Positions 3,705 to 63,349 of a DNA stretch of 64,000 nucleotides are shown piece after piece. The notes beneath the pieces were generated by a model. That model saw nothing but the letters and a program-made list of their open reading frames with translations, was not told the origin of the DNA and did no database searches. The DNA comes from a virus (taxonomy: Duplodnaviria; Caudoviricetes), in IMG/VR virus record IMGVR_UViG_3300011577_000001; one strand, written 5' to 3'. Position 1 is the stretch's first letter. Each line of letters opens with the position of its first letter. A program made the position numbers and the translations under genes.

Positions 3705-4835
3705 ATGGCTAAAACTATTAAAGATGTGTTGAGCATCATTCAAAAGGCAGGTGGGCTAGGTGATCTTTCGCAGGCCGCGATCAATAACCTTAAAGGCATC
3801 AACCACCGAGGTTTCGGAAACCCGTTACCAGTCAACAAAGATAACCAGGGCTTGACGTTCTTCACACGCCCTAACCTGAACTTATCATACGATAATATTG
3901 CAGCTAAGCGTATTCTGACCCCATTGCTCGATGGGGATGGTCCGGCGATGAACACGTATCAGCGTGCGATCCGTATGACACTCGATCCATACCTCGGTGA
4001 TCCGGCGATGTTTAAGCTGGGTGACCCGCGTCGTGGGGCACAGATGATGACTTGTGATCTGATCGATCAGAAGCAAGCCTTCATTCCAATCCTCACGAAC
4101 TGCCTCATTTCCCTAGGTGGTTGGCCTGACCTTTCGGTAGAGACTTTCCGCTCGACTCCCGGTAACTATGGTGAGTCATGGGCGATGGTGGACTCCAGCT
4201 CTCGCTTCTACGAAGTGTACGAGTTGAACGGTGCATTCAAAAGTCTTGAGGGTGATCCGATCTCCACGATCTTCTCGACTTGGCTACACTATATGTCGGG
4301 GGTTTACGAGGGGTCCATGGTCCCTTATCCGAATAACCTCGTGGAACGACGTATTGACTACCAGACGCGTATCTACCGTTTACTGTTAGACTCCAGTCGT
4401 CGATACGTTCAAAAGATCGCTGCTTGTGGTGCCGCCTTCCCTGTGAACTCACCACTGGGTAACTCGTTCAACTTCACGAACGAGGGTGTCTACAACCAAG
4501 ACAACGACCAGATCCAGATCCGCTTCGTAGCAATGGGTGCTGACTACAACGACCCTATCACCATTCAAGAGTTCAACGCCGTAGTACAGATCTTCAACCC
4601 GGAGATGAAAGGTGACGATAATGATCGTTCCCGCTACTACCGCAAGCTCGATGGTATCGATGAGATGAAAGCCTACAACTATAATGGCTATCCTCGAATC
4701 GATCCTGAGTCGATGGAACTGACCTGGTGGGTACCGATTGACAATTCCTCGGTAAGCGTTGCTGTTGCAACTCCTTCTGCGGGTGTGGACCTTTCCCCAA
4801 TCACTGATCTTCTTAAGGGCACTTCGACCTCATGA
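3705..4835 (+). CDS. Virion structural protein (phiKZ gp88-like)
   Basis: 376 aa, divergent from the head operon, ATGA-coupled to the next gene; synteny. Confidence 0.6.
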   Translation: MAKTIKDVLSIIQKAGGLGDLSQAAINNLKGINHRGFGNPLPVNKDNQGLTFFTRPNLNLSYDNIAAKRILTPLLDGDGPAMNTYQRAIRMTLDPYLGDPAMFKLGDPRRGAQMMTCDLIDQKQAFIPILTNCLISLGGWPDLSVETFRSTPGNYGESWAMVDSSSRFYEVYELNGAFKSLEGDPISTIFSTWLHYMSGVYEGSMVPYPNNLVERRIDYQTRIYRLLLDSSRRYVQKIAACGAAFPVNSPLGNSFNFTNEGVYNQDNDQIQIRFVAMGADYNDPITIQEFNAVVQIFNPEMKGDDNDRSRYYRKLDGIDEMKAYNYNGYPRIDPESMELTWWVPIDNSSVSVAVATPSAGVDLSPITDLLKGTSTS

Positions 4836-7747
4836 CGACCACTACCGCTGAGTTAATGGCCGCGATTGACGCGGTTCGTTTTAACCCCTCTGCGATCCAT
4901 CGCTTGGCCCTGAACATTCTCGAAGAGACTCGGAATGGGGAGCGAGTGATTGTAGACCCGACCAACCCTTTCATGTTCCTGCTGGAGTCCAGTGCGGTAA
5001 ACGTTGCGGCTGCTATGGCGTCCAACGAAGCCAACCTGCGTAAACAGTACGGGAGCATGGCGCTGACCGAGGAGGAGATCTACCTCCACATGTCCGACCG
5101 GGACTACCTCGATCGGTTCGCTAAACCGTCTCGTACTGAGATTGGTATTCTGCTGTCGCTGGATGAGATCTACCAACGTGTGATCCCAACTGGCTCTGGT
5201 GGGATGAAGAAGATGGTGATCCCTCGTCACAGTGAGTTTACTGTGGCAGGTTATTCCTTCACCATGCAGTACCCGATTGAACTGCGGGTCATGGCCAACA
5301 AAGGCTTGCAGGTGATCCACGATGTGTCACGACAGTCACCACTGATGTCCCTGACCTCCAACGTGGCTAAGACAGTGCTGATGAACATCGACGGTCAGAA
5401 GTACCTGTTGATCTACGCACCCGTCCTGCAAGTGAAGATCGACGTCCAGTATCCCAAGCTGGTCGCTGCGACGGCGTTCCGCAAACGCTACAACTTCGAT
5501 AACCAGTTCCACTTCGCTCGTGTCTACCAAGCCAACGCGGCTGGTGAATGGGTCGAGATGCGCACTACCCACACTGATCAGGTTTACGACCCGATGGTGC
5601 CCACGGCGGTACTTAAGGTGTTGGAAGGTCAACTCGAAGTCAGCATCCCGATGATCTACCAATCGGCAGGTACTGTAGAGTCTGAACTGCGGGTCGAGAT
5701 CTACACCACTGTCGGACCACTGGATCTGATCCTCAACAACTACGAACCCGGCTCTTACACCGCTCGTTGGTTGGACTTGGACGCTGATGACAACGGCATT
5801 TACATTGCACCGTTGACTCAGTTCAGTTCGGTCTCGGTGTTCTCTGACCGCGTGGTAACTGGTGGTAGCGATGCGCTGACGTTCGAGGCTCTGCGTGAGC
5901 GTGTGATCAACAACAGCCTGGGTTCCCAGCAACTACCGATCACCAACCAACAACTGACTTCGACGCTGTCGAACTTGGGCTATAACTTGTCGACCAACAT
6001 CGACTTGATTACCAACCGTCAGTTCTTGGCTACCCGCGTACTGCCTCCTCCGTCAGATGGTTCGGTGATCTCGGGTGCTGCGGCAACTGTGGCGACCTAC
6101 CAAGCATCGTTCGATGACTTGAAGTCCCATGAGTACATCCGTGACAACGGACTGCGCCTGACCATCACGCCGAAGGTGCTCTTCCAGGGCTACAACGGTC
6201 AGTACGGTCTGGTCTCCAAGATGCGCACCGATGAGCTGCTCGCCATGCGTGGCACCGATGCGTTTTTACCAGAGCTGGAACAGAACCGTTACCTAGCGTC
6301 GCCGTTCTACTACGTGTGGGACATTGACAATGACATCTTTGACTGCCGGATGTATCACCTCGATGCACCGACTGTTGAATCGAAGGTCTTTGTTCAAGAG
6401 AACGACACCACGGGTCTGATTGTTGCCACTGACACCTTTGCCCTGGAGAAGATCGACGAAGGCTATCGCGTCGTCATCAAGACCAAGTCGAGCGAAGAGT
6501 GGAAGCTGCTGCGTGACGATCAGGTCTACGTTCAGTTGGCGTTCGTGGCTCAAGGTGAAACAGCGCGTGCGTACATCAACGGTACGTTGCTGGCGCGTGA
6601 CGTCGACACCAACGAACGGATCTACGAGTTCAAGATCCTCACCAACTACGACGTGGATGAAGCGCATGGTCTGATGATCAACAACTTCACCATCTTCGGT
6701 CAGGTTCAAGACTGCCCAATCCCGCTGGAAGGTAAGTTGGACATTCTGTACGTCGCGGCGGACTACTCCTACCTCGACATGGTCTCCTCGGAAATCGACA
6801 CGATCCTCGACAGTTCTCTGCTGCCTGAGAAATACATCGGGTTGATCCACGAGCAACTGAACGTTACCCTGGGCCACACCTTGGATGGCTTCTGGTTGAA
6901 CAACCGTTCGGTGGTTTCGTCCATCGAGTACATGACCTACCCGACTGATGTGGTGGCCACCTATTCGGAAAACGTTTACGAACGCGATCCGGTGACCGGT
7001 GCGGTGAAGGTTGAGATCGGGGCTGATGGTAAGCCGAAGTTCAATCTGCTGTACGCCAAGGGCGATATCGTTCGAGACTCTACCGGTGAGGTGACTTACC
7101 AGTACCGTCAAGGCGACGTCATCGTTGATGCTCAAGGTAATCCGGTACCAGCTAACCCACGTGGGATGTTGCGGCAGACGGACCTGTTCTTGATGGACGG
7201 TCTGTACTACTTCGCTACCGAGAGTGCATCCAAAGACTACGCTGCGAGTGTTCCTAACACCATCGTGTCGTGGCTGGAAGATGACATCAAACCGATCTCT
7301 GAACGTCTGCTGGAACAAACCGAGCTGTTCTTCCATCCTCAGATTACCACTGGTTACGCCAAGGCTCTGGTGATGGATAACTTCGAGATCGACCTCGACA
7401 CTGAACAGACTCTGACAGTTCGCTACTACCTGTCGGAAACTGGCTTCAAGAACGCTGAGCTGCGCAAGAGCCTCGAGACCACTGCTATTGAAGTGATCCA
7501 CGAAGCCTTTGGGTCTTCTCGCGTGAGCACCAAAGACATCGCTAACCGCATCCAGTTGGCTGCTGGTGATGATGTTCGAACGGTGTCGGTGTCTGGTCTG
7601 GGTGGTGGTACTCCAGGTTACGATATCGTGTCGCTGCAAGACGAATCTGCTCGCTTGGGGATTCGTAAGAAACTGGTGGCACTGGCTGATGGTACTTACG
7701 CGGTGGAAGACTCCGTGGAAGTGCTGTTTATCCAACACGGTAACTAA
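4832..7747 (+). CDS. Large virion protein, probable baseplate wedge (phiKZ gp87-like)
   Basis: 971 aa; GGSDALTFEALRERVINN resembles the T4 gp6/baseplate-J motif; synteny. Confidence 0.6.
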   Translation: MTTTTAELMAAIDAVRFNPSAIHRLALNILEETRNGERVIVDPTNPFMFLLESSAVNVAAAMASNEANLRKQYGSMALTEEEIYLHMSDRDYLDRFAKPSRTEIGILLSLDEIYQRVIPTGSGGMKKMVIPRHSEFTVAGYSFTMQYPIELRVMANKGLQVIHDVSRQSPLMSLTSNVAKTVLMNIDGQKYLLIYAPVLQVKIDVQYPKLVAATAFRKRYNFDNQFHFARVYQANAAGEWVEMRTTHTDQVYDPMVPTAVLKVLEGQLEVSIPMIYQSAGTVESELRVEIYTTVGPLDLILNNYEPGSYTARWLDLDADDNGIYIAPLTQFSSVSVFSDRVVTGGSDALTFEALRERVINNSLGSQQLPITNQQLTSTLSNLGYNLSTNIDLITNRQFLATRVLPPPSDGSVISGAAATVATYQASFDDLKSHEYIRDNGLRLTITPKVLFQGYNGQYGLVSKMRTDELLAMRGTDAFLPELEQNRYLASPFYYVWDIDNDIFDCRMYHLDAPTVESKVFVQENDTTGLIVATDTFALEKIDEGYRVVIKTKSSEEWKLLRDDQVYVQLAFVAQGETARAYINGTLLARDVDTNERIYEFKILTNYDVDEAHGLMINNFTIFGQVQDCPIPLEGKLDILYVAADYSYLDMVSSEIDTILDSSLLPEKYIGLIHEQLNVTLGHTLDGFWLNNRSVVSSIEYMTYPTDVVATYSENVYERDPVTGAVKVEIGADGKPKFNLLYAKGDIVRDSTGEVTYQYRQGDVIVDAQGNPVPANPRGMLRQTDLFLMDGLYYFATESASKDYAASVPNTIVSWLEDDIKPISERLLEQTELFFHPQITTGYAKALVMDNFEIDLDTEQTLTVRYYLSETGFKNAELRKSLETTAIEVIHEAFGSSRVSTKDIANRIQLAAGDDVRTVSVSGLGGGTPGYDIVSLQDESARLGIRKKLVALADGTYAVEDSVEVLFIQHGN

Positions 7748-9029: not shown

Positions 9030-9476
9030 TTAGAAAACGCTGTTGGTCTGGAAGACCTCGATCAGGTCGCGGTTCTCGTAAACACACTTGTAGCGGTTTG
9101 CGATCTCGCAGGAAACCGGGTCGGTGACTTCGCCGCACAGCAACAGGTTCTTCAGCAGGGAAGAAGCGGCCGGATGAGTAGCGTCGTGACACAGACGGTA
9201 ACGAGTAATCCACAGTTTGAACACCAGGTTTTCAACGATGTCCATGTCGATCACATGCTGTTCGTTGATCACGTTCAGCGCTTTACCGATGTTGATGCGC
9301 AGGGTGTTGCGGTACCACGCTTCTGGATGATCCACAGCACTCGAAGGGAGAGGGAGCTGGGCTGCCAGGGCGTCGGCCACCAACAGGCTAACCACCTTGC
9401 AGCGGTCAGCGAATTGCACTTCACCACAATCCAAAGCGCGTTGGATAGCAGTGGCGATAGGTTTGATCTGGAGCAT
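9030..9476 (-). CDS. Hypothetical virion-block protein
   Basis: 148-aa ORF tightly packed in the operon. Confidence 0.6.
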   Translation of the reverse strand: MLQIKPIATAIQRALDCGEVQFADRCKVVSLLVADALAAQLPLPSSAVDHPEAWYRNTLRINIGKALNVINEQHVIDMDIVENLVFKLWITRYRLCHDATHPAASSLLKNLLLCGEVTDPVSCEIANRYKCVYENRDLIEVFQTNSVF

Positions 9477-9485
9477 GTGGGAGCC

Positions 9486-10754
9486 CTATGCGAATTTCAG
9501 GTTGGTGAGTTTCTCGGCAGTCACGAAGAGCTGGTTGTTCACCAGTTTCTCGAGTTCTACCTGGAAGCGGAGTTGTTCGTACTGACGACGACCGCTCGGC
9601 AGGATGGAGGTGTAGAAGAACTCCATCAAGGTGCGTTTGTCATCGATGTTCTTGAGCAAGGCGTCGACCGCTTCGATGTCGTCCACGATTGCTTTGCGCT
9701 GATCGGCTGGCAGGTCTTTTTGCTTGAGGGAAGCAACCAGCTCACGCTTCATACGACCAAGGCGGGCACCTGGATCGTCGTACAGCTTCATGGCAGGGTT
9801 GATCAGCAGCACCAGCAGGATCAGGCCGCAGGTTGGGATCAACAGGGCGAAGAACAGGATCACACGGATCACGGTAGCGAAGATGTGCATGCCGGTAGAC
9901 ATGTACGAGGCGTCGCCGCCGTAGTGGCGGTGAATCTTGTCCAGGCCAGTAGCCAGGTAACGACCAGCACCGGCGCGGATAGCGTACTGGTCAGCCAGTG
10001 CTTCGGTCGCGGTGATGTCGTAGATGTTCGAGCCCAGGGAAGACTTGGCTTCGAGGATGGCTTTACGCAGTACGACGGTCTGGAAGACTTCTTTACTGTC
10101 ACACTTGACCAGTGCTTCAGGGTCATCCAGCGAGATTTCCAACGCTTTACAAGTCTCGTCCAGAATCTGCGTCCGTTTTACCAGATCGTCAGACTTGAAG
10201 AAGGCTTGGGTGGCCGCGTGTAGAATTACGTTCGTCGTTAATGTATGACCGAGGAACTCGTAGTAGGTGAACAGGTGCCCCACTTCGTGCAGTGTAACGG
10301 CTGCGCGTTCTTCATCACACAGCAGGGTGCTTTCACACAGACCCTTGTAAACAGTGAGCTGGTGTTCGATCTCGGTGAAGATACCGTACACCTTACCTTG
10401 TTTCAGGTCCACAGAACCCTTAATGATGTCGCTACGACGGGCTTTGATGAACTTCTTCACGTCGGTGTTATCGATGTGAGGTTTCCACCAATCGTAGATC
10501 AGCGGGTTGTTCTTGTCGACCATCGGCGGAATGACATACGCATTGATGTCATTGTTTTTCTCGACCTTGAATTTGACCTTGAGGCCAGTGTGACGCTTGA
10601 TGATTTCTTCGAATCCGATCCGCTTAAGGGCGTCTCCTTCGTAGGCCTTCTCCGTACGCATACGCTGGAAAGCCAACGTAAGCTCTTTGAAGAAGAGATC
10701 ATTCTGGACCTGAATGGCCTCGAGGCCGATGGAAAGTCGTTTACTGGTTAACAT
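9486..10754 (-). CDS. Virion-associated zinc metallopeptidase-like protein (phiKZ gp84-like)
   Basis: LHEVGH (HExxH), EALADQYA third-ligand motif, hydrophobic segment, N-terminal IGLEA site. Confidence 0.7.
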   Translation of the reverse strand: MLTSKRLSIGLEAIQVQNDLFFKELTLAFQRMRTEKAYEGDALKRIGFEEIIKRHTGLKVKFKVEKNNDINAYVIPPMVDKNNPLIYDWWKPHIDNTDVKKFIKARRSDIIKGSVDLKQGKVYGIFTEIEHQLTVYKGLCESTLLCDEERAAVTLHEVGHLFTYYEFLGHTLTTNVILHAATQAFFKSDDLVKRTQILDETCKALEISLDDPEALVKCDSKEVFQTVVLRKAILEAKSSLGSNIYDITATEALADQYAIRAGAGRYLATGLDKIHRHYGGDASYMSTGMHIFATVIRVILFFALLIPTCGLILLVLLINPAMKLYDDPGARLGRMKRELVASLKQKDLPADQRKAIVDDIEAVDALLKNIDDKRTLMEFFYTSILPSGRRQYEQLRFQVELEKLVNNQLFVTAEKLTNLKFA

Positions 10755-17328: not shown

Positions 17329-17964
17329 TTAGTGGCGCGACTTTGGATTGATGTCGATGCCGGGCAAACGGGATACTGCGGTTAAGAGACGGCGTACGTG
17401 AGAGACCTGAATACTGATACGGGAAGGACCACCACGAGGATAACCACGACCGCGAGTGATTTGCTGCACAGCTTCATTGAGAGCGTCAACTAACCCTTGA
17501 ATGAACTCACGTTCTTCCTTCATTGGTTGGAAACGCATTGGACAGAGTCGAACGAATTCTTCAACAGTCCAACCCATGATGAAGATCTCGCCGTCTTTAA
17601 CAACGACTTCTTCAGCAGGATCGGTCTTCAAGTACTTGAAATACAGAACCGTTGCGTTGTCTCTCTTCTGCTTGGGTGGTGGGTAAACGATGTCTCGAAG
17701 TTCATCGATCGTGTTAGGACGAATTGCTTCGATCAACTTCATCACCGATGCTGGGGGTAGCGGCTCACGGCGCAATTGATTCCCGTAATCGAGTCCAAGT
17801 TTGATCTTGAATCCGCTCGGGGAATGTGCAATAGCGAAAGGCTGGTGTTGGTCCACGCCAACAATCGTGTAGTAACTCGCATCCGAGAACTGAAGTTTGT
17901 TGTCGTAGTTATAAAGCAGTGCATGGATAAGAAGCCTGAGGCCTTCTCGCATGATGTTCTCCAA
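17329..17964 (-). CDS. Hypothetical protein
   Basis: About 211-aa ORF in the early operon. Confidence 0.65.
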   Translation of the reverse strand: MENIMREGLRLLIHALLYNYDNKLQFSDASYYTIVGVDQHQPFAIAHSPSGFKIKLGLDYGNQLRREPLPPASVMKLIEAIRPNTIDELRDIVYPPPKQKRDNATVLYFKYLKTDPAEEVVVKDGEIFIMGWTVEEFVRLCPMRFQPMKEEREFIQGLVDALNEAVQQITRGRGYPRGGPSRISIQVSHVRRLLTAVSRLPGIDINPKSRH

Positions 17965-57352: not shown

Positions 57353-57451
57353 AAAACTTATTGGGATGGCGTCTATGACGCTTTCTCTATAGGATCAGGG
57401 GTATGTGTCAATTTAAACAGTCTGTTGCTTAAAACGCAAAATAGACGGCAT

Positions 57452-58100
57452 AAAAGGTAAATCCCCACAACGCACCCCGCGGACACGAGGAGCGCCGTGG
57501 GGCGCCTCACCAACAACACAAGGTCCGCTTAGGAGGACGGACATGAAGCGACACCCGGATCGCTTCCCTAAACACACTCAGTCAAGGTCGGCCGCCAGAG
57601 AACCGAGAGTGTTTAAGGCTGCGGTCAAGACGCTAAATCCCGTCGATGGTTAACGGGAGGGTCTACAACAACAACTTGTGGGATTCGCCGTCCCACCAGA
57701 CCTTTTCAGTTACTTAGCACTTGCGAGGCGCTAAGTACTTCCTTACTGCCCCTGTGATGGAAGGTCTAGGTACACAGGAGTCCTACCCTAACACGGGTTG
57801 GATTACACGCACAAGGCGACAAGCCGCGCTCGCAGCGGCCGCCGTGCAGGTGTCAAGCAGCTTTCGCCCTTTGGGCTGTCTACACTTACAGGATGACTCG
57901 GTTCTTAGCCAAGGTCCTGATTTGGGGTTCTGTCCTGAAAGTAGTAACAGTTCCTACGACACTGGGGTTTAATCCAGGAAAGCTCAACTCAAGAGTGAGT
58001 GGGGAAGCCGAAACCTCCCAGACAGTTAATGGCCCGACGGGGTGGGGTCCTGTCCAAGGTTAGGGTAGATTAGCTCCTAACCAAGACTTTCGATACACTC
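57452..58100 (-). ncRNA. Large (~640 nt) multi-hairpin RNA ending in a terminator-like stem
   Basis: No credible ORF; continuous helices whose G-U pairs mostly favour the minus strand; UUCG loop; possible pseudoknot. Confidence 0.6.
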
Positions 58101-58105
58101 ACGTT

Positions 58106-58192
58106 TGGTACCCGAAGTCGGACTCGAACCGACATGGCTCAAGGCCGTCGCATTTTAAGTGCGGTGCGTCTCACCAATTTCACCATTCGGGC
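58106..58192 (-). tRNA. trnL: tRNA-Leu(UAA)
   Basis: GCCCGAA acceptor, CT-TAA-AA loop, long variable arm, TTCGAGT, CCA. Confidence 0.92.
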
Positions 58193-58195
58193 AAA

Positions 58196-58271
58196 TGGGT
58201 GCCTTCTCTACTTTGCCAGGTAAGGGTTCTTTGTTTCCACGCGCAGATCCACTCATTGACGAGAGAAGACA
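58196..58271 (-). ncRNA. 76-nt rod-like RNA ending in CCA
   Basis: TGTCTTCTCT/AGAGAAGGCA 10-bp terminal stem then C-CCA; no D or T arm. Confidence 0.4.
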
Positions 58272-58276
58272 TTGAA

Positions 58277-58376
58277 AGGGGTCCCCTGATGGATTCGAAC
58301 CACCGACCGTCGCATCCATTCTGTCCCAGGTTTGGACCAAGATGCACAACTCTAACCGACTGAGTTTAAGGAGACC
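58277..58376 (-). ncRNA. tRNA-like RNA with expanded anticodon arm
   Basis: 8-bp acceptor GGTCTCCT/AGGGGACC, D arm AACTC..GGTTA-GAGTT, T arm GGTGG-TTCGAAT-CCATC; 24-nt insert between TGCATC and GATGCG. Confidence 0.7.
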
Positions 58377-58453
58377 ATCAACTGAATTCCCTGGGGAACC
58401 TTAATCGACTTGGAAGCCATTCAAAGTTTGATGGGAGACTCCCCAAGGGAAAG

Positions 58454-58541
58454 TGGCGGAAGGACAGGGACTCGAACCCTGGGACCTGTTACAGTCGGCG
58501 GTTTTCAAGACCGCTGCAATACGCCGCTATGCGACCCTTCC
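58454..58541 (-). tRNA. trnS: tRNA-Ser(UGA)
   Basis: GCGGT-CT-TGA-AA-ACCGC, long variable arm, GCCA. Confidence 0.93.
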
Positions 58542-58747
58542 GAAAATCAAGCCAGGGCTATTCCCTGGAGTCACTCCCATGGCTAGGCACCATGACCGAT
58601 TAGAGCGAGGTCCTAAGCGAAACCGATCGGCACGGTTACTCGCTTACTCTTTCGAGTACGGATGTCTAGGCGTCTCGTTGTGTGAGCAACGATCCACTCG
58701 CCCGCAGGACAGGGCCACCAGCAGGGCAGGCGCTTGGTGTTCCTTGG

Positions 58748-58843
58748 TCAGGCTTTCGCCCGAGACAGCAGTTTCAGCATTCCTTTCGGGATATGCTTAG
58801 TCTTCGCTTTACGACGAGGACTGTAGAACGGAAAACCAGGCAT
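58748..58843 (-). CDS. 31-aa basic peptide MPGFPFYSPRRKAKTKHIPKGMLKLLSRAKA
   Basis: Preceded by CTAAGAAGGA, the same RBS used by the genes starting at 19651 and 20392. Confidence 0.5.
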   Translation of the reverse strand: MPGFPFYSPRRKAKTKHIPKGMLKLLSRAKA

Positions 58844-58864
58844 GGCTCTCTCCTTCTTAGAAAG

Positions 58865-58952
58865 TGGCAGTAGGTGAGAGATTCGAACTCTCGTGGCTGT
58901 TACACCAACACGCTTTCCAGGCGTGCCTTTTCGACCGCTCAAGCAACCTACT
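58865..58952 (-). tRNA. trnS: tRNA-Ser(GGA)
   Basis: CACGC-CT-GGA-AA-GCGTG, long variable arm, GCCA. Confidence 0.93.
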
Positions 58953-58970
58953 GTGAAAGGTAAAGCAAAG

Positions 58971-59125
58971 TTCAATCAATACCCGGTGTGTGGTATCTTT
59001 TCGTTTACAGATCTGGTGGCCCAGCCAGGATTTCGGGTTGTACCTGGAATGCTACCTTGGAGGGTAGAGTTATACCTTTCGGCGTTTTTAACTATTGGGC
59101 CTTTCTTACCACACCACTGATTGAA
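58971..59125 (-). ncRNA. Cloverleaf-in-a-stem RNA, copy 1
   Basis: Outer stem TTCAATCAGT..GTGTGGTA/TACCACAC..ATTGATTGAA encloses a tRNA-like unit at 59014-59101 ending GGCC-ACCA. Confidence 0.6.
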
Positions 59126-59148
59126 TCCCGCGAGGGAACTTCCAAACA

Positions 59149-59304
59149 GATAGACAAGATTCCTTTGTAACGCGTATTGTATTCGCTCTCTTTCAAACGA
59201 GTGGCCAGGGGAGCCTTCGGACCCTACTCCCACGTGGAACCCCGGTTGGTGGGGCTGCTTTAGAGCTTTTAGCGACTGGCCTTTCTACGTTACCGCTGTC
59301 TATC
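59149..59304 (-). ncRNA. Cloverleaf-in-a-stem RNA, copy 2
   Basis: Outer stem GATAGACA..GTAACG/CGTTAC..TGTCTATC encloses GGCCAG-(three hairpins)-CTGGCC-AC at 59203-59281. Confidence 0.55.
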
Positions 59305-59307
59305 AAA

Positions 59308-59421
59308 ATCACAAGCAGTAGATTTCACCGTACCGTCGGCTGTGATGTTACTTTCTACTTGCCTAGGCTTTCGCCTTGATTCCCTGCATCCAGACTCGCG
59401 TTACTGGATACTGCTTGTGAT
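59308..59421 (-). ncRNA. Structured RNA closed by a perfect 13-bp stem
   Basis: ATCACAAGCAGTA/TACTGCTTGTGAT; inner TCCAG/CTGGA and AGGC-GAAA-GCCT. Confidence 0.5.
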
Positions 59422-59463
59422 CTTTGTCAACCATCTTGTCGAGGACGACAACACAGTCGAACA

Positions 59464-59539
59464 TGGCACGCACCCAGGGAGTCGAACCCCGAACCTACGG
59501 ATTTGGAATCCGTTGCTCTGCCAATTGAGCTAGGCACGT
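59464..59539 (-). tRNA. trnW: tRNA-Trp(CCA)
   Basis: ACGGA-TT-CCA-AA-TCCGT; canonical D and T arms; CCA. Confidence 0.93.
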
Positions 59540-59546
59540 GTAAAAC

Positions 59547-59622
59547 TGGTAGCACCAAGTGGGCTCGAACCACCGACCTCACCCTTATCAGGGGTGCGCT
59601 CTACCAACTGAGCTATAGCGCT
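59547..59622 (-). tRNA. trnI: tRNA-Ile(GAU)
   Basis: CACCC-CT-GAT-AA-GGGTG; CCA. Confidence 0.95.
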
Positions 59623-59629
59623 ATGAAAC

Positions 59630-60001
59630 TTAACCGCGACGGTTATAGTTGACGCGCTGGACTTCCAGCTCGACATACAATTCCATCGGGTATTGAGAAG
59701 GCAGTTCTACCGAGACACGCGCGATGGCAGTCTCAGGGTTGACGAATACCGCAAACGGAGCATTGGCGAAGGAGCCCAACACGCCTTGCATCTGGACACC
59801 ACGCTCGGTTTCGCTCTTGATCGGGCTGGTGATGTTGCAGGCAATGTCCACACCGTCAACGGTGGTGACACGCACTGCTTTCACCGACTCGATGGAGTCA
59901 GTACTGTCGAACTCTTCGGTCTGTGTAGCAATCAGACCAAACAGGTTGACTTGGCTAACCTTGAGCGGCAAACGAACGTGGTCAACAGGATACTTGTACA
60001 T
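59630..60001 (-). CDS. Stand-alone paralogue of the C-terminal domain of the Tad2 fusion
   Basis: VRLPL....NLFGL...T......DSIESV..V...TVDG and ELYVEL..NRR match the upstream gene. Confidence 0.75.
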   Translation of the reverse strand: MYKYPVDHVRLPLKVSQVNLFGLIATQTEEFDSTDSIESVKAVRVTTVDGVDIACNITSPIKSETERGVQMQGVLGSFANAPFAVFVNPETAIARVSVELPSQYPMELYVELEVQRVNYNRRG

Positions 60002-60010
60002 GACAGCCCC

Positions 60011-60646
60011 TTATTCAGAACGACGGTTGCGTTGGCCGTACTCGATGCGAAGAACCGCGAACAGCTCAACCGAATTCTCGGCAGCAGATGAACGCGTTGG
60101 CATGCAACCCCATTTCTGGGTGTCAACTTGGATGTTGACGTGTTGCTTACCGTTGAGGCGATCCGCAAAGGTCTTCAAGCGAGTCTCAGTACGGTGTCCC
60201 GGTACTTCGACGACGTTGCTCTTGACGACCAACCCATCAGCAGTCTCCAGGTGAACGACTTCCACCGAGAAGATAGCATCAGGACCCTCCAACACGGCGC
60301 CGGTTTCACCAGCCAACGTGAAGAGGTTTTGTTCAACGCCGTTCAAAGGAACGCGCACGTCAACCTTGGCAACGTAATCCTCAGCATCAAGGACTACCCA
60401 GTCGTCGGCAAGGATGTCGGACTGAGAAGCAACCCACGGGACAAAATCACCGTTGTGCGCTTTCAGACCCAGCCAAGGTCGCAGAGTCGGTGCAGGGTCC
60501 TTACGAACGTTGAGACCAACGGTGCGAGCACCCACGTCATAATGGCCAGAGCCAACCATGACGACCCACATGCCTTTACCGTTCCAGCCTTCGCGTGTGG
60601 CGCGAGAGCCATGCTTCAAAGCCGTAAGGGCTTGACCGAACTCCAT
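60011..60646 (-). CDS. tad2: Tad2/DUF2829 anti-defence sponge domain fused to a ~125-aa domain
   Basis: MEFGQALTALKHG.RATREGWNGKGMWV...PWVASQSDILADDW; SD CAGGAG before ATG 60646. Confidence 0.8.
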   Translation of the reverse strand: MEFGQALTALKHGSRATREGWNGKGMWVVMVGSGHYDVGARTVGLNVRKDPAPTLRPWLGLKAHNGDFVPWVASQSDILADDWVVLDAEDYVAKVDVRVPLNGVEQNLFTLAGETGAVLEGPDAIFSVEVVHLETADGLVVKSNVVEVPGHRTETRLKTFADRLNGKQHVNIQVDTQKWGCMPTRSSAAENSVELFAVLRIEYGQRNRRSE

Positions 60647-60667
60647 GTGAAGCTCCTGTTGTGAATG

Positions 60668-60753
60668 TGGCGGTGGGCGAAGGATTCGAACCTTCGGGGC
60701 CGCAACCCTCTCCCTTAGCAAGGGAGTGCGATAGACCGCTCTGCCAGCCCACC
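60668..60753 (-). tRNA. trnS: tRNA-Ser(GCU)
   Basis: CTCCC-TT-GCT-AA-GGGAG, variable arm, GCCA. Confidence 0.93.
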
Positions 60754-60776
60754 CATTTGAAAAGATGAAACGAAAT

Positions 60777-60853
60777 TGGCTGGGATAGTTGGGCTCGAAC
60801 CAACGACCTGGTGATTAACAGTCACCCGCTACTACCAACTGAGCTATATCCCA
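60777..60853 (-). tRNA. trnN: tRNA-Asn(GUU)
   Basis: GGTGA-CT-GTT-AA-TCACC; GCCA. Confidence 0.93.
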
Positions 60854-61356
60854 TTATAACGAATACCAAGAGCTACCCGACGAACCGTGTCTTTACCGAT
60901 TTCAAACTCCCGAGCAATTGCTCGATAGCTCATGGTACCGACCAGTTCAAGGATAGCCTTGACTGACTCTTCATCAAGCGCAGCATGTGGGCTGTCAAAC
61001 CCTTTCTTGCCTTCATACAAACCTAAGGCTTGCGCATGATCAATATTACCTTGATGCGTTACCCACTCCAAGTTATCCCACCGGTTATTTGTCTTATCCG
61101 TGTCCTTATGGTTCACGAAGGGAAGATTCAACGGGTTAGGGACAAAAGCCTTGGCCACTTGTACATGAGCCCTTAAACAGAACGACTTACCTTTCCTTCC
61201 TCCTATCTTGGAGGCGTGAGTAAGATAGCCATTATGGTTGGGCGTCAGTGCCAAATCTTGGAACGTGCGAATGCTAAACAGTGTCCCGAAATTGCCGATC
61301 ATGAAGAGATCAGGGTAGTCAGGACATTCCGTGAAGACTTCAAATTCATACGACAT
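60844..61356 (-). CDS. HNH homing endonuclease (I-HmuI-like, C-terminal HTH)
   Basis: HVQVAKAFVPN..FVNHKDTDKTNNRWDNLEWVT..N..HA; stop codon lies inside tRNA-Asn. Confidence 0.9.
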   Translation of the reverse strand: MSYEFEVFTECPDYPDLFMIGNFGTLFSIRTFQDLALTPNHNGYLTHASKIGGRKGKSFCLRAHVQVAKAFVPNPLNLPFVNHKDTDKTNNRWDNLEWVTHQGNIDHAQALGLYEGKKGFDSPHAALDEESVKAILELVGTMSYRAIAREFEIGKDTVRRVALGIRYNGI

Positions 61357-61380
61357 GTACTACTCCAGTAAGTGTTACTT

Positions 61381-61400
61381 CCTGTAAGTAATATACATCT
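61381..61400 (-). promoter_or_regulatory. Early-type promoter of the HNH gene
   Basis: AGATGTATATTAC. Confidence 0.65.
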
Positions 61401-61428
61401 GAACTATTTTAGTCTCCTAGGAAGGAGA

Positions 61429-61505
61429 TGGCGCCTCCGAGGGAACTTGAACCGTCGACCCCCGGCGTGACAGGCCGGTGCTCTAACCAACTGAGCTACG
61501 GAAGC
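61429..61505 (-). tRNA. trnD: tRNA-Asp(GUC) with mispaired T stem
   Basis: CCGGC-CT-GTC-AC-GCCGG; T stem GACGG/TCCCT has two mismatches. Confidence 0.8.
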
Positions 61506-61699
61506 GAAAACGTCCTGAGGAAAATGGACTCTGCAATCACCCAGACTGTGCCTGTAGGTGCATCGCGTGTAGGCTCAAGGTTCATGTAGACAACCATGGG
61601 CCAAGAACAATCCTGAGCGTGTCGACCGACGTGTAGCACTCGGAAGCGCAACCCGCTAGGAGAGAGGTACTCTCGATCCTTCTCGACAAACTCTAACAT
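61496..61699 (-). CDS. DUF1653-like small protein
   Basis: Y....G..F.VLHVGRH..D....MVVY..L....WV....F...F; SD GAGGA; stop inside tRNA-Asp. Confidence 0.65.
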   Translation of the reverse strand: MLEFVEKDREYLSPSGLRFRVLHVGRHAQDCSWPMVVYMNLEPTRDAPTGTVWVIAESIFLRTFSLP

Positions 61700-61717
61700 T
61701 GTTCATTCCTCTAATTC

Positions 61718-62257
61718 GGCTCCGGCTTGCTTCCCACCGCTTCGGTGGTTCACTGTACAACTCACCTGTAAACCAGACGACCCGCCGGAGAGGTCTTTAA
61801 CTAACTACGTCAGCACACCTAAGGTTCCGAAGAAGGTAGGTACTTGATGTAGATCCACTGGAGTACTAGCTCTCGTCGACGTTGGCACTAACGAGATTGG
61901 GTGATCCTCCCGGCGGGGACATCCGCCGAGTTAATGCACAGTGAGCCGGATTTTCGTAACGCACAAAGGCAAACGACACGGCATGGCAAAGGATCGTAAG
62001 GGTGGTCTCCCCGTAGTTCTCCCACGAGGTTAAGGGACCGCTGCGGCGCTATGCTAGATGCTTTTGTCCGCTGCGACAATCCAAGACCGTTGTTTGACAC
62101 GCCTCGCCTCATTGGGTTGGAATTCCCGAGACTTATTTTCCCTGACTGATGACGCTCTCAGCATCGACCGAGCGGGTTACTCCTTTCCAAGGGAGCACCT
62201 ATCTAAGTCTTACAAGGTAAAACCACCGTATCGCCAGCAAGGGTCGTCGCGGTGTTA
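61718..62257 (-). ncRNA. Non-coding stretch with several structured modules
   Basis: CTCCGGC/GCCGGAG-closed 73-nt unit, AGACTTA/TAAGTCT multiloop, GATCCT/AGGATC stem followed by ACCCA. Confidence 0.4.
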
Positions 62258-62261
62258 AAAG

Positions 62262-62348
62262 TGGTGGTCGAAGGATGGAATTGAACCTCTAGCACAAGGC
62301 GGCGCGTTTACAGCGCGCTGACAGTAGCCATCTGTCTCTACAACGACC
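62262..62348 (-). tRNA. trnY: Atypical tRNA-Tyr(GUA)
   Basis: GCGCG-CT-GTA-AA-CGCGC and ACCA end; irregular acceptor, D and T stems. Confidence 0.65.
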
Positions 62349-62355
62349 GTGAAAC

Positions 62356-62486
62356 TGGTGCCCCGTTACTCTATTACGAGTGTCTGTTAGACTGACCCCG
62401 TGAGAGGGGAGTTTGGGTTTGACCGGCTCTACATTCCCACCCCGAAGGGTTCACAATGCGATCTCCGATGACCTCAGACCAGGACA
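62356..62486 (-). ncRNA. 131-nt CCA-terminated non-tRNA RNA
   Basis: TGTCCTG/CGGGGCA stem plus CCA, ACTC-GTAATA-GAGT hairpin in the T-arm position, GTCTG/CAGAC-closed domain with ACCC-TTCG-GGGT. Confidence 0.55.
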
Positions 62487-62499
62487 TGAAACTAGAAGA

Positions 62500-62633
62500 T
62501 GGCCCCGCTACGTGGACTCGAACCACGGACCTCCCGCTGGCACGCGCATTCAAACGTCATCACTGCCGGAAGGGCTGCTAGCGACGTAACCGCATGTCTA
62601 ACGAGTGCTCTAACCAACTGAGCTATAGCCGGG
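62500..62633 (-). ncRNA. tRNA body whose anticodon loop is replaced by a 63-nt structured extension
   Basis: TAGCTCAGTTGGTTAGAGCA D arm, AGGTC-CGTGG-TTCGAGT-CCACG T arm, GCCA end; insert between CTCGT and GCGGG. Confidence 0.8.
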
Positions 62634-62636
62634 ATG

Positions 62637-62871
62637 TGAGAGAAGGCCGCTACCCCGATCTACGGGCCGTGATACTCTCGGGGACTCAGGCGAAAGGGAA
62701 CCAAAAGCCTAAGAACTGCGGTATGCAAGCGCAGTCGTCTATTACCCCAGAGTCGGGTCGCAATATCATTCGATGGTGTGTGGGGTCCGTCAAGTCTCCA
62801 CGTTCCCTCTCGGTGGCGAAACCAAGAGCGTGCTGGAACTTACCATTCAAACAAATCACGTCATTCTCTCA
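62637..62871. ncRNA. 235-nt multibranch structured element at the head of the RNA island
   Basis: TGAGAGAA/TTCTCTCA closing stem; ACTCT.GGGG/CCCCAGAGT, ACTGCG/CGCAGT and GTTCC/GGAAC helices; strand ambiguous. Confidence 0.45.
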
Positions 62872-62914
62872 TGATATCATTGAGCTATGTATTTTTTTAC
62901 TGCATTTGTAGGGA

Positions 62915-62943
62915 CAAAAAAAAGAGGGCCCCGAAGAGCCCCG
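62915..62943 (-). terminator. Terminator after an early gene
   Basis: GGGCTC-TTCG-GGGCCC then TCT8 on the minus strand. Confidence 0.8.
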
Positions 62944-62950
62944 ACTTTTA

Positions 62951-63349
62951 TTAAGGTATTTCAGGGAACCCAACGATCTTGAGGATCAGGTTCCGTTTGC
63001 GTCTGTACCAACCATCAGGCATCGCGGGTATTCCACGAGCTTCGGATTCTTTACGAATCTCTTCATCGGTCTTGAAGAGCAGGGGGACCGGGAAGTAGTG
63101 CCAGGCATTGGGTTGACCGTAACGCACCAAGGCGTGAGCAGCCTTGCGGCTCCACTCTTTCTCGGTGATACCTTTACGCAGTTCTTCTTTCAGTTGCTCT
63201 TGCAGTTCCTCAGGCGAGGACGGGTTGAGCAGACTGATGTAATGGGTGCTCTTCTTTTTGGATCGACGAGCAGCGTAGATAACGCCACCGAGTTCGTGGT
63301 GAACTTGGTTACCGTTACTGTAAGTGTGGGTGTAATATTCGCGAGTCAT
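62951..63349 (-). CDS. Early hypothetical protein
   Basis: 132 aa between an early promoter and a terminator. Confidence 0.7.
   Translation of the reverse strand: MTREYYTHTYSNGNQVHHELGGVIYAARRSKKKSTHYISLLNPSSPEELQEQLKEELRKGITEKEWSRKAAHALVRYGQPNAWHYFPVPLLFKTDEEIRKESEARGIPAMPDGWYRRKRNLILKIVGFPEIP

Follow-up and report, generated by a model that had tools for sequence, protein, structure and literature searches.

For some forty to fifty years, the tRNA gene clusters of bacteriophages T4 and T5 have been known to contain stable and tRNA-like RNAs besides their tRNAs, and the deposited records of both phages list the stable RNAs without a function. The tRNA region of T5 (AY543070) annotates RNAI, RNAIII, RNAIV and RNA2H as "stable RNA with unknown functions", together with the tRNA-like RNA1, RNA2 and RNA3 and a 719-nucleotide (nt) RNAX next to tRNA-Arg. 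In T4, rnaC (species 1) and rnaD (species 2), which are processed from a tRNA precursor, follow the tRNAs and the homing endonuclease gene segB at the 3' end of the cluster. Much larger RNAs, GOLLD and ROOL, are known mainly from Firmicutes and Actinobacteria. They are phage RNAs that are often found near tRNA islands (10.1101/2024.12.08.627333). Here we analyse an RNA island of ~5.4 kb in the virus record IMGVR_UViG_3300011577_000001, of which a stretch of 64 kb (the window) was studied; coordinates are positions in this window, and L002, L003 and so on denote the compared loci of other contigs. We think it probable that the island is a stable-RNA operon, in which tRNAs and tRNA bodies are processing and stability scaffolds for swappable structured non-coding RNAs. 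An earlier note, made from the letters of the window, had called it the best candidate for a new system. That was overstated: loci of this kind are annotated in T5 and T4 and so are already known, if unexplained. The RNA families of the island, shared by ~13 related uncultured phages, are nevertheless new as far as sequence comparison reaches, because no relation was seen to the T5 RNAs, to Rfam or, with the exception of one unit (T2), to 50,697 phage genomes.

The likeness to T5 is one of layout. In both loci tRNAs are interleaved with stable and tRNA-like RNAs, HNH endonucleases and small open reading frames (ORFs), and an RNA of ~700 nt stands beside a tRNA. T5, however, belongs to the Demerecviridae and the island to a phiKZ-like jumbo phage lineage. 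RNAX precedes tRNA-Arg whereas its counterpart in size, S7, follows tRNA-Leu and ends the operon (unit names as in Table 1), and a Tad2-like gene is embedded in the jumbo-phage island. At the sequence level, the T5 region gave no match to the nhmmer profiles of S7, S4c and S3a and a weak partial one to that of T1 (E=0.31). Covariance models of the S7 core and of S4c (R1, built from S4c alone, and R2, a second model used in this search) had no significant match in T5 either. The resemblance to T4 is one of annotation, and its two RNAs of 119-139 nt compare with about ten units plus a 640-nt RNA in the island.

To find relatives, we scanned with the 67-aa protein of the island, which yielded 18 viral contigs, four of them (L002-L005) with the spacers of the window. 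An invariant 17-base motif of S7 was used to retrieve more members from viral and metagenome collections. This core motif scan returned 47 stretches, of which 31 (2 viral, 29 metagenome) were chance matches without similar flanks, told apart by BLAST from ~11 real relatives. About 2.5 kb of the island are spacers that hold no gene. Compared with the closest relative, L002, nine spacer units are 85.9% identical over 1881 nt, against 87%, 91% and 65.0% at codon positions 1, 2 and 3 of four neighbouring genes. Since the spacers are far closer than the third codon positions, they evolve as constrained rather than near-neutral sequence: they are under purifying selection. Moreover, the units with enough relatives keep their helices through compensatory changes. 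In the proposed structures 97-99% of the alignment cells are paired, versus 30-50% when the partners on the 3' side are slid by 1-3 columns. Searches of 50,697 phage records with megablast and blastn matched the spacers at tRNAs or T2 only, a search of plasmids with the island matched tRNAs only, and Rfam (at gathering cut-offs, at E up to 1 on the island and at E up to 10 on 57440-59470) returned tRNA-clan matches and noise. The spacers thus fold into discrete units on the tRNA strand, as the earlier note had read them; they are conserved, they covary, several are tRNA-derived and they do not all fall into known Rfam families.

The largest unit, S7, had been noticed as an RNA of ~640 nt, and this is what it is. 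Its consensus from seven full-length homologues (68-94% pairwise identity) holds 173 pairs in 28 helices; 96.6% of cells are paired, and in 53 of the pairs both partners have changed. After sliding by 1-3 columns, 36-44% of cells are paired and 2-9 two-sided pairs are left, and 0 of 500 shuffles reach the observed values. A 250-nt 5' core (57854-58103) is common to all 13 distinct sequences, from 13 phages, and is 99.1% paired with 20 compensatory pairs. The 3' part comes as two alternative domains, which give a short form of ~650 nt and a long form of ~850 nt. The GNRA loops vary (GAAA, GUAA, GCAA). Many G-U pairs are invariant, and therefore the minus strand, that of the tRNAs, is the RNA strand. 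No Rfam family matches S7 at E up to 10, and the core model found no significant match in Psa21, pPa_SNUABM_DT01 or two more distant jumbo contigs. A 10-mer (GACAGAACCC) shared with Escherichia coli M1 RNA raised the idea of an RNase P RNA. We dropped it, since what would be CR-I is a hairpin with a variable GNRA loop and none of the RNase P models matches. As a separate observation, a 507-nt insert separates tRNA-Leu from S7 in L004 (8617-9120) and in L039. It holds an ORF with a signal-peptide-like start, and its GDTI...IRLAGIDTPE reads, by eye, like a staphylococcal-type (SNase) nuclease.

Several of the units are derived from tRNAs: T1 matches the Rfam tRNA model, T3 aligns with tRNA bodies and S4c with a tRNA-Arg. 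T1 is a complete shell with acceptor, D and T arms: the acceptor stem has 8 bp with one conserved mismatch position, and a bent helix of ~63-73 nt stands where the anticodon loop would be. ARAGORN does not report T1, whereas the Rfam tRNA model (RF00005) matches it at 62503-62632 with 41.2 bits, against a threshold of 29 bits, and a large insert. Its five homologues support 39 pairs, 13 of them compensatory, and GCCA ends all five. We also considered T1 as a tRNA with an intron, as the 5' side of L002 reads like the anticodon loop of a Val (GAC) tRNA. This idea was ruled out: the window has A at position 33, a helix without a bulge-helix-bulge holds the putative splice sites, and the sequence differs there in L043 and L049. 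S2, the next unit, has 35 pairs with 11 compensatory in five sequences, each with CCA at the corresponding place, and in L043 and L049 its core is carried by a tRNA-like shell with canonical D and T arms.

In T3 the acceptor (8 bp), D and T arms are perfect but CCA is not encoded, and the place of the anticodon loop is taken by a 24-nt loop with a hairpin in it. Like T1, it lacks the 7-nt anticodon loop on a 5-bp stem. ARAGORN did not report it, and Rfam gave it 20-21 bits with the tRNA-Sec model. Its homologues at the same position are, in L060 and L049, a tRNA(UAG) whose loop has 7 nt and, in L004 and L039, UUCG-capped bodies. That the body is kept while the decoding loop is lost by more than one route speaks against simple decay. 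From anticodon loop to UUCG cap to hairpin insert, this is a natural series at one position in which decoding is discarded; it points to the tRNA shape as a processing and stability scaffold, a trick later engineered in the laboratory. In E. coli, RNAs are stabilised when inserted into engineered tRNA scaffolds. In the scaffold of Ponchon and Dardel, the cargo reportedly takes the place of the anticodon arm, and the rest of the tRNA (acceptor, D and T arms, CCA) is retained so that processing and stability are preserved. The layout is identical in T1, and in S2 of L043 and L049, except that theirs is a laboratory construct and that of the island is natural, conserved and covarying. tRNA-like processing is also used by MALAT1-mascRNA and by the MHV68 TMERs. 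On a side note, ARAGORN reports "tRNA-???" with two-base anticodons at L004:8147-8225, at the equivalent place in L039, at L010:5003-5089 and at L011:1122-1208; those of L004 and L039 are complete tRNA bodies with a UUCG tetraloop as anticodon loop. The tRNA region of the cultured phage Psa21 (L070) has unannotated gaps of 600-820 nt (4663-5269 and 9195-10015) and an over-long "tRNA-Asn" of 90 nt (5269-5358), with one of 85 nt in L013; these could be shell or cargo RNAs.

In S4b and S4c, an ex-tRNA cloverleaf is locked in a long outer stem. The S4c alignment has 37 pairs, 98% of cells paired and 12 compensatory pairs, against 0-1 in the slid controls. R1 matches S4b over its full length (23.3 bits, E=7e-4), and its inner part aligns to the real tRNA-Arg of phage phiPsa374. 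S4b is 90% identical to its L002 counterpart, and some copies of the S4b/S4c type have ACCA remnants after the inner stem. In a more distant jumbo contig, the S4c model has a weak, near-full-length match (16.5 bits, E=0.058) at L006:5689-5817, between tRNA-Tyr and the DUF1653 gene, which is possibly a remote relative of the nested cloverleaf.

T2 keeps its decoding loop: the 7-nt anticodon loop CUGUAAA/C is invariant. Its arms are complete, with mismatches: the D stem has 5 bp, the T stem is weak, the acceptor stem contains U-U mismatches and the gene ends in ACCA. Seven sequences give 21 pairs, 8 of them compensatory. ARAGORN missed it, and its best Rfam match is tRNA-Sec (20.3 bits). Jumbo contigs, and cultured Pseudomonas phages that belong to other genera, carry T2 at 82-90% identity. 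In the Pseudomonas syringae phages phiPsa374 (L021:1501-1594), KIL2 (17608-17700) and ZY21 (L020:1145-1230) the identity is 82-88%, with 88% in KIL2 and phiPsa374. The homologue in ZY21 is annotated as tRNA-Tyr; phiPsa374 and the KIL phages have no such annotation. Its presence in the cultured phages phiPsa374, KIL and ZY21 makes part of the question directly testable. With T2, the anticodon-bearing elements of the island number nine, as the earlier note had counted, the eight others being tRNAs found by ARAGORN, all on the minus strand. Its two tRNA bodies lacking an anticodon loop (T1, T3), two nested cloverleaves (S4b, S4c) and CCA-ended non-tRNAs (T1, S2) likewise stood up.

The smaller units behave similarly. 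S3a has 76 pairs, 10 of them compensatory, from two distinct sequences. It does not look coding, since its sole sizeable ORF (74 aa) stops after 18 codons in the alignment with L043. S3b is conserved at 80-82% in L002 and L003 and its hairpins covary. S4a is 99% identical in L002 and 95% in L049, versus ~80% for its flanks, and occurs in three different contexts. S5 has 55 pairs, 12 compensatory, in four sequences and ends in an invariant hairpin and a U tract, a terminator-like site at 58568-58552.

These units are shuffled as modules among the ~13 related phages. In a map of modules and tRNAs that covers 13 loci, they are present or absent independently of each other, S4a and S4b have changed places in L002, ORFs are exchanged as cargo and tRNA content differs between close relatives. 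In many genomes, unit and tRNA are separated by 0-18 nt (S5, S6b, S7, S4c, T2/S3a). The gap is 0-1 nt from S5 to tRNA-Ser and, in nine genomes, from S6b to tRNA-Leu, 0-3 nt from tRNA-Leu to S7 in most genomes, and 0-5 nt from tRNA-Val or tRNA-Gly to S4c.

The island (57452-62942) forms one terminator-to-terminator unit, with every recognisable feature on the minus strand. The hairpin+TTATGCC junction at its lower boundary has ~35 copies in the genome, on both strands (e.g. 19287, 28614, 35534, 51042), and none inside the island, which fits a single transcription unit; we infer that the island is co-transcribed. As for the junction itself, the GC-rich hairpin with TTATGCC resembles a joint terminator/phage-promoter junction, and phiKZ-type promoters contain TATG. 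The source record (240,392 bp, estimated 87% complete) encodes a tubulin/PhuZ-like protein, and the closest relatives of the DUF1653-type protein of the window are in the Pseudomonas jumbo phages pPa_SNUABM_DT01, Psa21 and Noxifer. The source virus is therefore a phiKZ-like jumbo phage, and its host is probably a pseudomonad.

How would such a stable-RNA operon work? The island would be transcribed as one precursor, in which host RNase P (at 5' ends) and RNase E/Z with exonucleases (at 3' ends) would cut each tRNA and each tRNA-shaped body. These cuts would release decoding tRNAs, shells with cargo arms (T1, T3, S2), the locked ex-tRNA cloverleaves (S4b, S4c), small RNAs (S3a, S4a, S5, S6b) and the terminal S7. 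Such a release through tRNA processing sites is suggested by the 0-18-nt junctions, the two flanking terminators and the lack of an internal TTATGCC junction. The tRNA shape would be the source of defined ends and nuclease resistance, and the cargo helices and S7 would be the working parts. At a guess, the cargo could bind or titrate host factors in an accessory role, be it host takeover or counter-defence. The observation of the earlier note is confirmed and its interpretation, decoy or scaffold RNAs released at tRNA processing sites, is supported in part.

Several points weigh on the other side. Single-sequence folding energies are ordinary (z -0.3 to -1.4), so that the evidence for structure is comparative, and many of the compensatory changes trace one two-clade split, so that independent events are fewer than counted cells. 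A search of the island for sigma-70-type promoters gave one weak site only (62793-62765, in S1). A TTGACA...TATAGA block downstream is conserved, but with a 14-nt spacer and unique in the genome it was not accepted as a promoter; with a weak site and an odd block, the promoter of the island was not identified. phiKZ-type phages use their own polymerases. Some units might act solely in cis, namely S3b as a 5' leader, S6b as a tRNA leader and S5 as a possible 3' untranslated region (UTR) of the micropeptide gene. Finally, the phage is of the nucleus-forming type, which puts in question where host RNase P and the transcript would meet.

One alternative, unlikely in our view, is that the island is a set of counter-defence decoys: anticodon-less bodies and mimics would soak up tRNA-targeting or RNA-sensing effectors, while the canonical and altered tRNAs would replace cleaved host tRNAs. 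The context suggests such a role, with a Tad2-like anti-Thoeris domain embedded in the operon and modules and ORFs turning over fast, as in anti-defence islands. The anticodon loop has also been removed three ways at one position from otherwise intact tRNA bodies. In addition, the tRNA set holds members of the queuosine family (Asp, Asn and the Tyr-like T2, with His in L002), which are the targets of colicin E5-type nucleases. Phage tRNAs have in fact been proposed to evade anticodon nucleases (PMC10264068). However, anticodon nucleases read the very loop that is absent here, leaving readers of the acceptor stem, the elbow or the CCA as the sole ones to fit, and we found no complementarity to plasmid genes.

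Alternatively, S7 would be a functional analogue of GOLLD and ROOL, a self-assembling multimeric cage or scaffold, and the small units would be unrelated passengers. The earlier note had drawn the comparison with GOLLD and ROOL, and it holds for context and size: S7 shares with them the size class (~640 nt), the many helices (28, with varying GNRA loops), the phage origin and a combination of conserved core and variable domain. It also lies directly 3' of a tRNA at the end of the island, the context described for both RNAs (10.1101/2024.12.08.627333). The comparison fails at the level of Rfam models, as those of GOLLD and ROOL had no match on the island at E up to 1 or on 57440-59470 at E up to 10. 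Their hosts differ from that of the jumbo phage, and in the searches made the S7 family is confined to one phage clade. We regard this reading as unlikely.

Units acting purely in cis, as leaders, trailers and UTRs that would tune tRNA processing and the translation or stability of small-ORF messages with no function in trans, are a reading that we find more doubtful still. It suits S3b, which lies directly 5' of the ribosome-binding site of the DUF1653 gene, S6b, which is always ahead of tRNA-Leu, and S5, which always adjoins tRNA-Ser(TGA), usually after the micropeptide gene. It does not suit S7, S4a, S4b, S4c and T1, self-contained units with closing stems that change contexts; S4a stays 95-99% identical in different neighbourhoods, and the CCA-ended shells resemble mature products.

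The bacterial Y RNA YrlA consists of a tRNA-like domain and a long stem made from both ends; it is cleavable by RNase P and can receive CCA (PMC4201824). The general design recurs in S4b and S4c, which raises the very improbable scenario that these, with the tandem tRNA-like units, are partners of Ro60/Rsr that tether a host RNA-decay machine in the manner of YrlA. A weak YrlA match (25 bits against a cut-off of 69, E=0.046) does span the T1/S2 junction in L043, two adjacent tRNA-like units. In the window itself the YrlA model (RF02553) has no match. The cloverleaf is permuted in YrlA but unpermuted in S4b and S4c, GCCGAAAG forms a GNRA loop (GUAA in L028) and not the stem motif, and no TROVE/Rsr (PF05731) or RtcB gene was found in the 240-kb record, itself an estimated 87% complete. 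A search for a phage-encoded CCA-adding enzyme was also negative. Least credible of all is neutral debris of decayed tRNA pseudogenes and homing-endonuclease scars, for which the variable tRNA content of close relatives, the HNH gene and the mismatched stems of T2 could be cited, but which is contradicted by spacers as conserved as first and second codon positions, by helices kept through compensatory changes in S7, its core, S4c and T1, and by perfectly paired tRNA bodies with the anticodon loop alone remodelled.

With this island, a T4/T5-type design is now found in a distant lineage, that of a PhuZ-encoding phiKZ-like jumbo phage, with purifying selection and strong covariation behind it. 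S7 adds a new family of ornate 640-nt RNAs in 13 phages, of the kind behind the nanocage structures of ROOL and GOLLD. Tentatively, one may go further and envision, for the nucleus-forming jumbo phages, a library of RNA effectors that sit on tRNA scaffolds and can be swapped, alongside the new class of large ornate RNA represented by S7, so that RNAs rather than proteins would act on host factors. The targets may be tRNA-directed immune nucleases, enzymes of tRNA maturation or modification, or the ribosome. Were this true, RNA-based host takeover would have had its first, long overlooked examples in the stable RNAs of T4 and T5.

Table 1. Features of the RNA island and its boundaries, from the upper to the lower end.
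Feature	Positions	Strand	Basis
Strong intrinsic terminator, upper island boundary; belongs to the gene upstream (62951-63349)	62925..62942	-	7-bp stem, then T8 run
S1, leader upstream of T1	62634..62900	-	90.7% identical to L002
T1, tRNA shell with D arm, T arm and encoded CCA	62500..62633	-	Rfam tRNA, fold, 5 homologues
S2, structured unit with CCA end	62356..62499	-	5 sequences
T2, non-canonical tRNA-Tyr(GUA)-like gene	62262..62348	-	7 sequences; tRNA-Tyr in ZY21
S3a, structured module, also in L043 and L044	61980..62261	-	covarying pairs
S3b, structured 5' leader of the DUF1653 gene	61700..61870	-	L002, L003
67-aa protein, phrog_9138; homologue annotated DUF1653	61496..61699	-	
tRNA-Asp (GTC)	61430..61506	-	ARAGORN, Rfam
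HNH homing endonuclease	60844..61356	-	Pfam HNH_3, phrog_59
tRNA-Asn (GTT) and tRNA-Ser (GCT)	60668..60853	-	ARAGORN, Rfam
Tad2-like domain plus ~125-aa unknown domain, 211 aa	60011..60646	-	PF11195, 83.2 bits, E=1.9e-23
123-aa protein, kin to the C-terminal domain of the Tad2 fusion	59630..60001	-	BLASTP 34% identity over 65 aa, E=6e-7
tRNA-Ile (GAT) and tRNA-Trp (CCA)	59464..59622	-	ARAGORN, Rfam
S4a, 106-nt unit, 8-bp closing stem and three hairpins	59312..59417	-	near-invariant
S4b, ex-tRNA cloverleaf in long outer stem, twin of S4c	59147..59306	-	R1 model
S4c, ex-tRNA cloverleaf in 17-bp outer stem	58969..59127	-	in 10 relatives
tRNA-Ser (GGA)	58865..58952	-	ARAGORN, Rfam
31-aa basic micropeptide with ribosome-binding site (MPGFPFYSPRRKAKTKHIPKGMLKLLSRAKA)	58748..58843	-	conserved ORF
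S5, ~200-nt multi-hairpin RNA adjoining tRNA-Ser(TGA)	58542..58747	-	4 sequences
tRNA-Ser (TGA)	58454..58541	-	ARAGORN, Rfam
T3, tRNA body with altered anticodon loop	58278..58376	-	fold; homologous bodies in relatives
S6b, conserved hairpin leader directly 5' of tRNA-Leu	58193..58277	-	nine genomes
tRNA-Leu (TAA)	58106..58192	-	ARAGORN, Rfam
S7, ~640-nt ornate RNA	57452..58105	-	5' core, variable 3' domain, terminator
Terminator hairpin, then TTTTATGCC, lower boundary of the island	57453..57483	-	hairpin+TTATGCC junction

Among the protein genes, that of the HNH endonuclease has a homologue in none of the compared loci and is a mobile insert, as it is missing from every relative. The Tad2 fusion seen by the earlier note holds: its N-terminal residues, 1-85 of 211, match PF11195 far above the Pfam cut-off of 25 bits. 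It differs from Tad2 in an extra C-terminal domain, duplicated as the next gene, and neither this domain nor the 123-aa protein matches a Pfam or PHROG family. Among the 13 mapped loci, the pair (fusion and 123-aa gene) occurs in the window and L002 only. The basic micropeptide also proved sound, its ORF being conserved at the amino-acid level in five relatives (L003, L049, L043, L060, L033) with the shared pattern MPG...KGLLKLL(S/A)RAKA. Its gene usually lies directly upstream of the S5 RNA, and the two are possibly a peptide-RNA pair.

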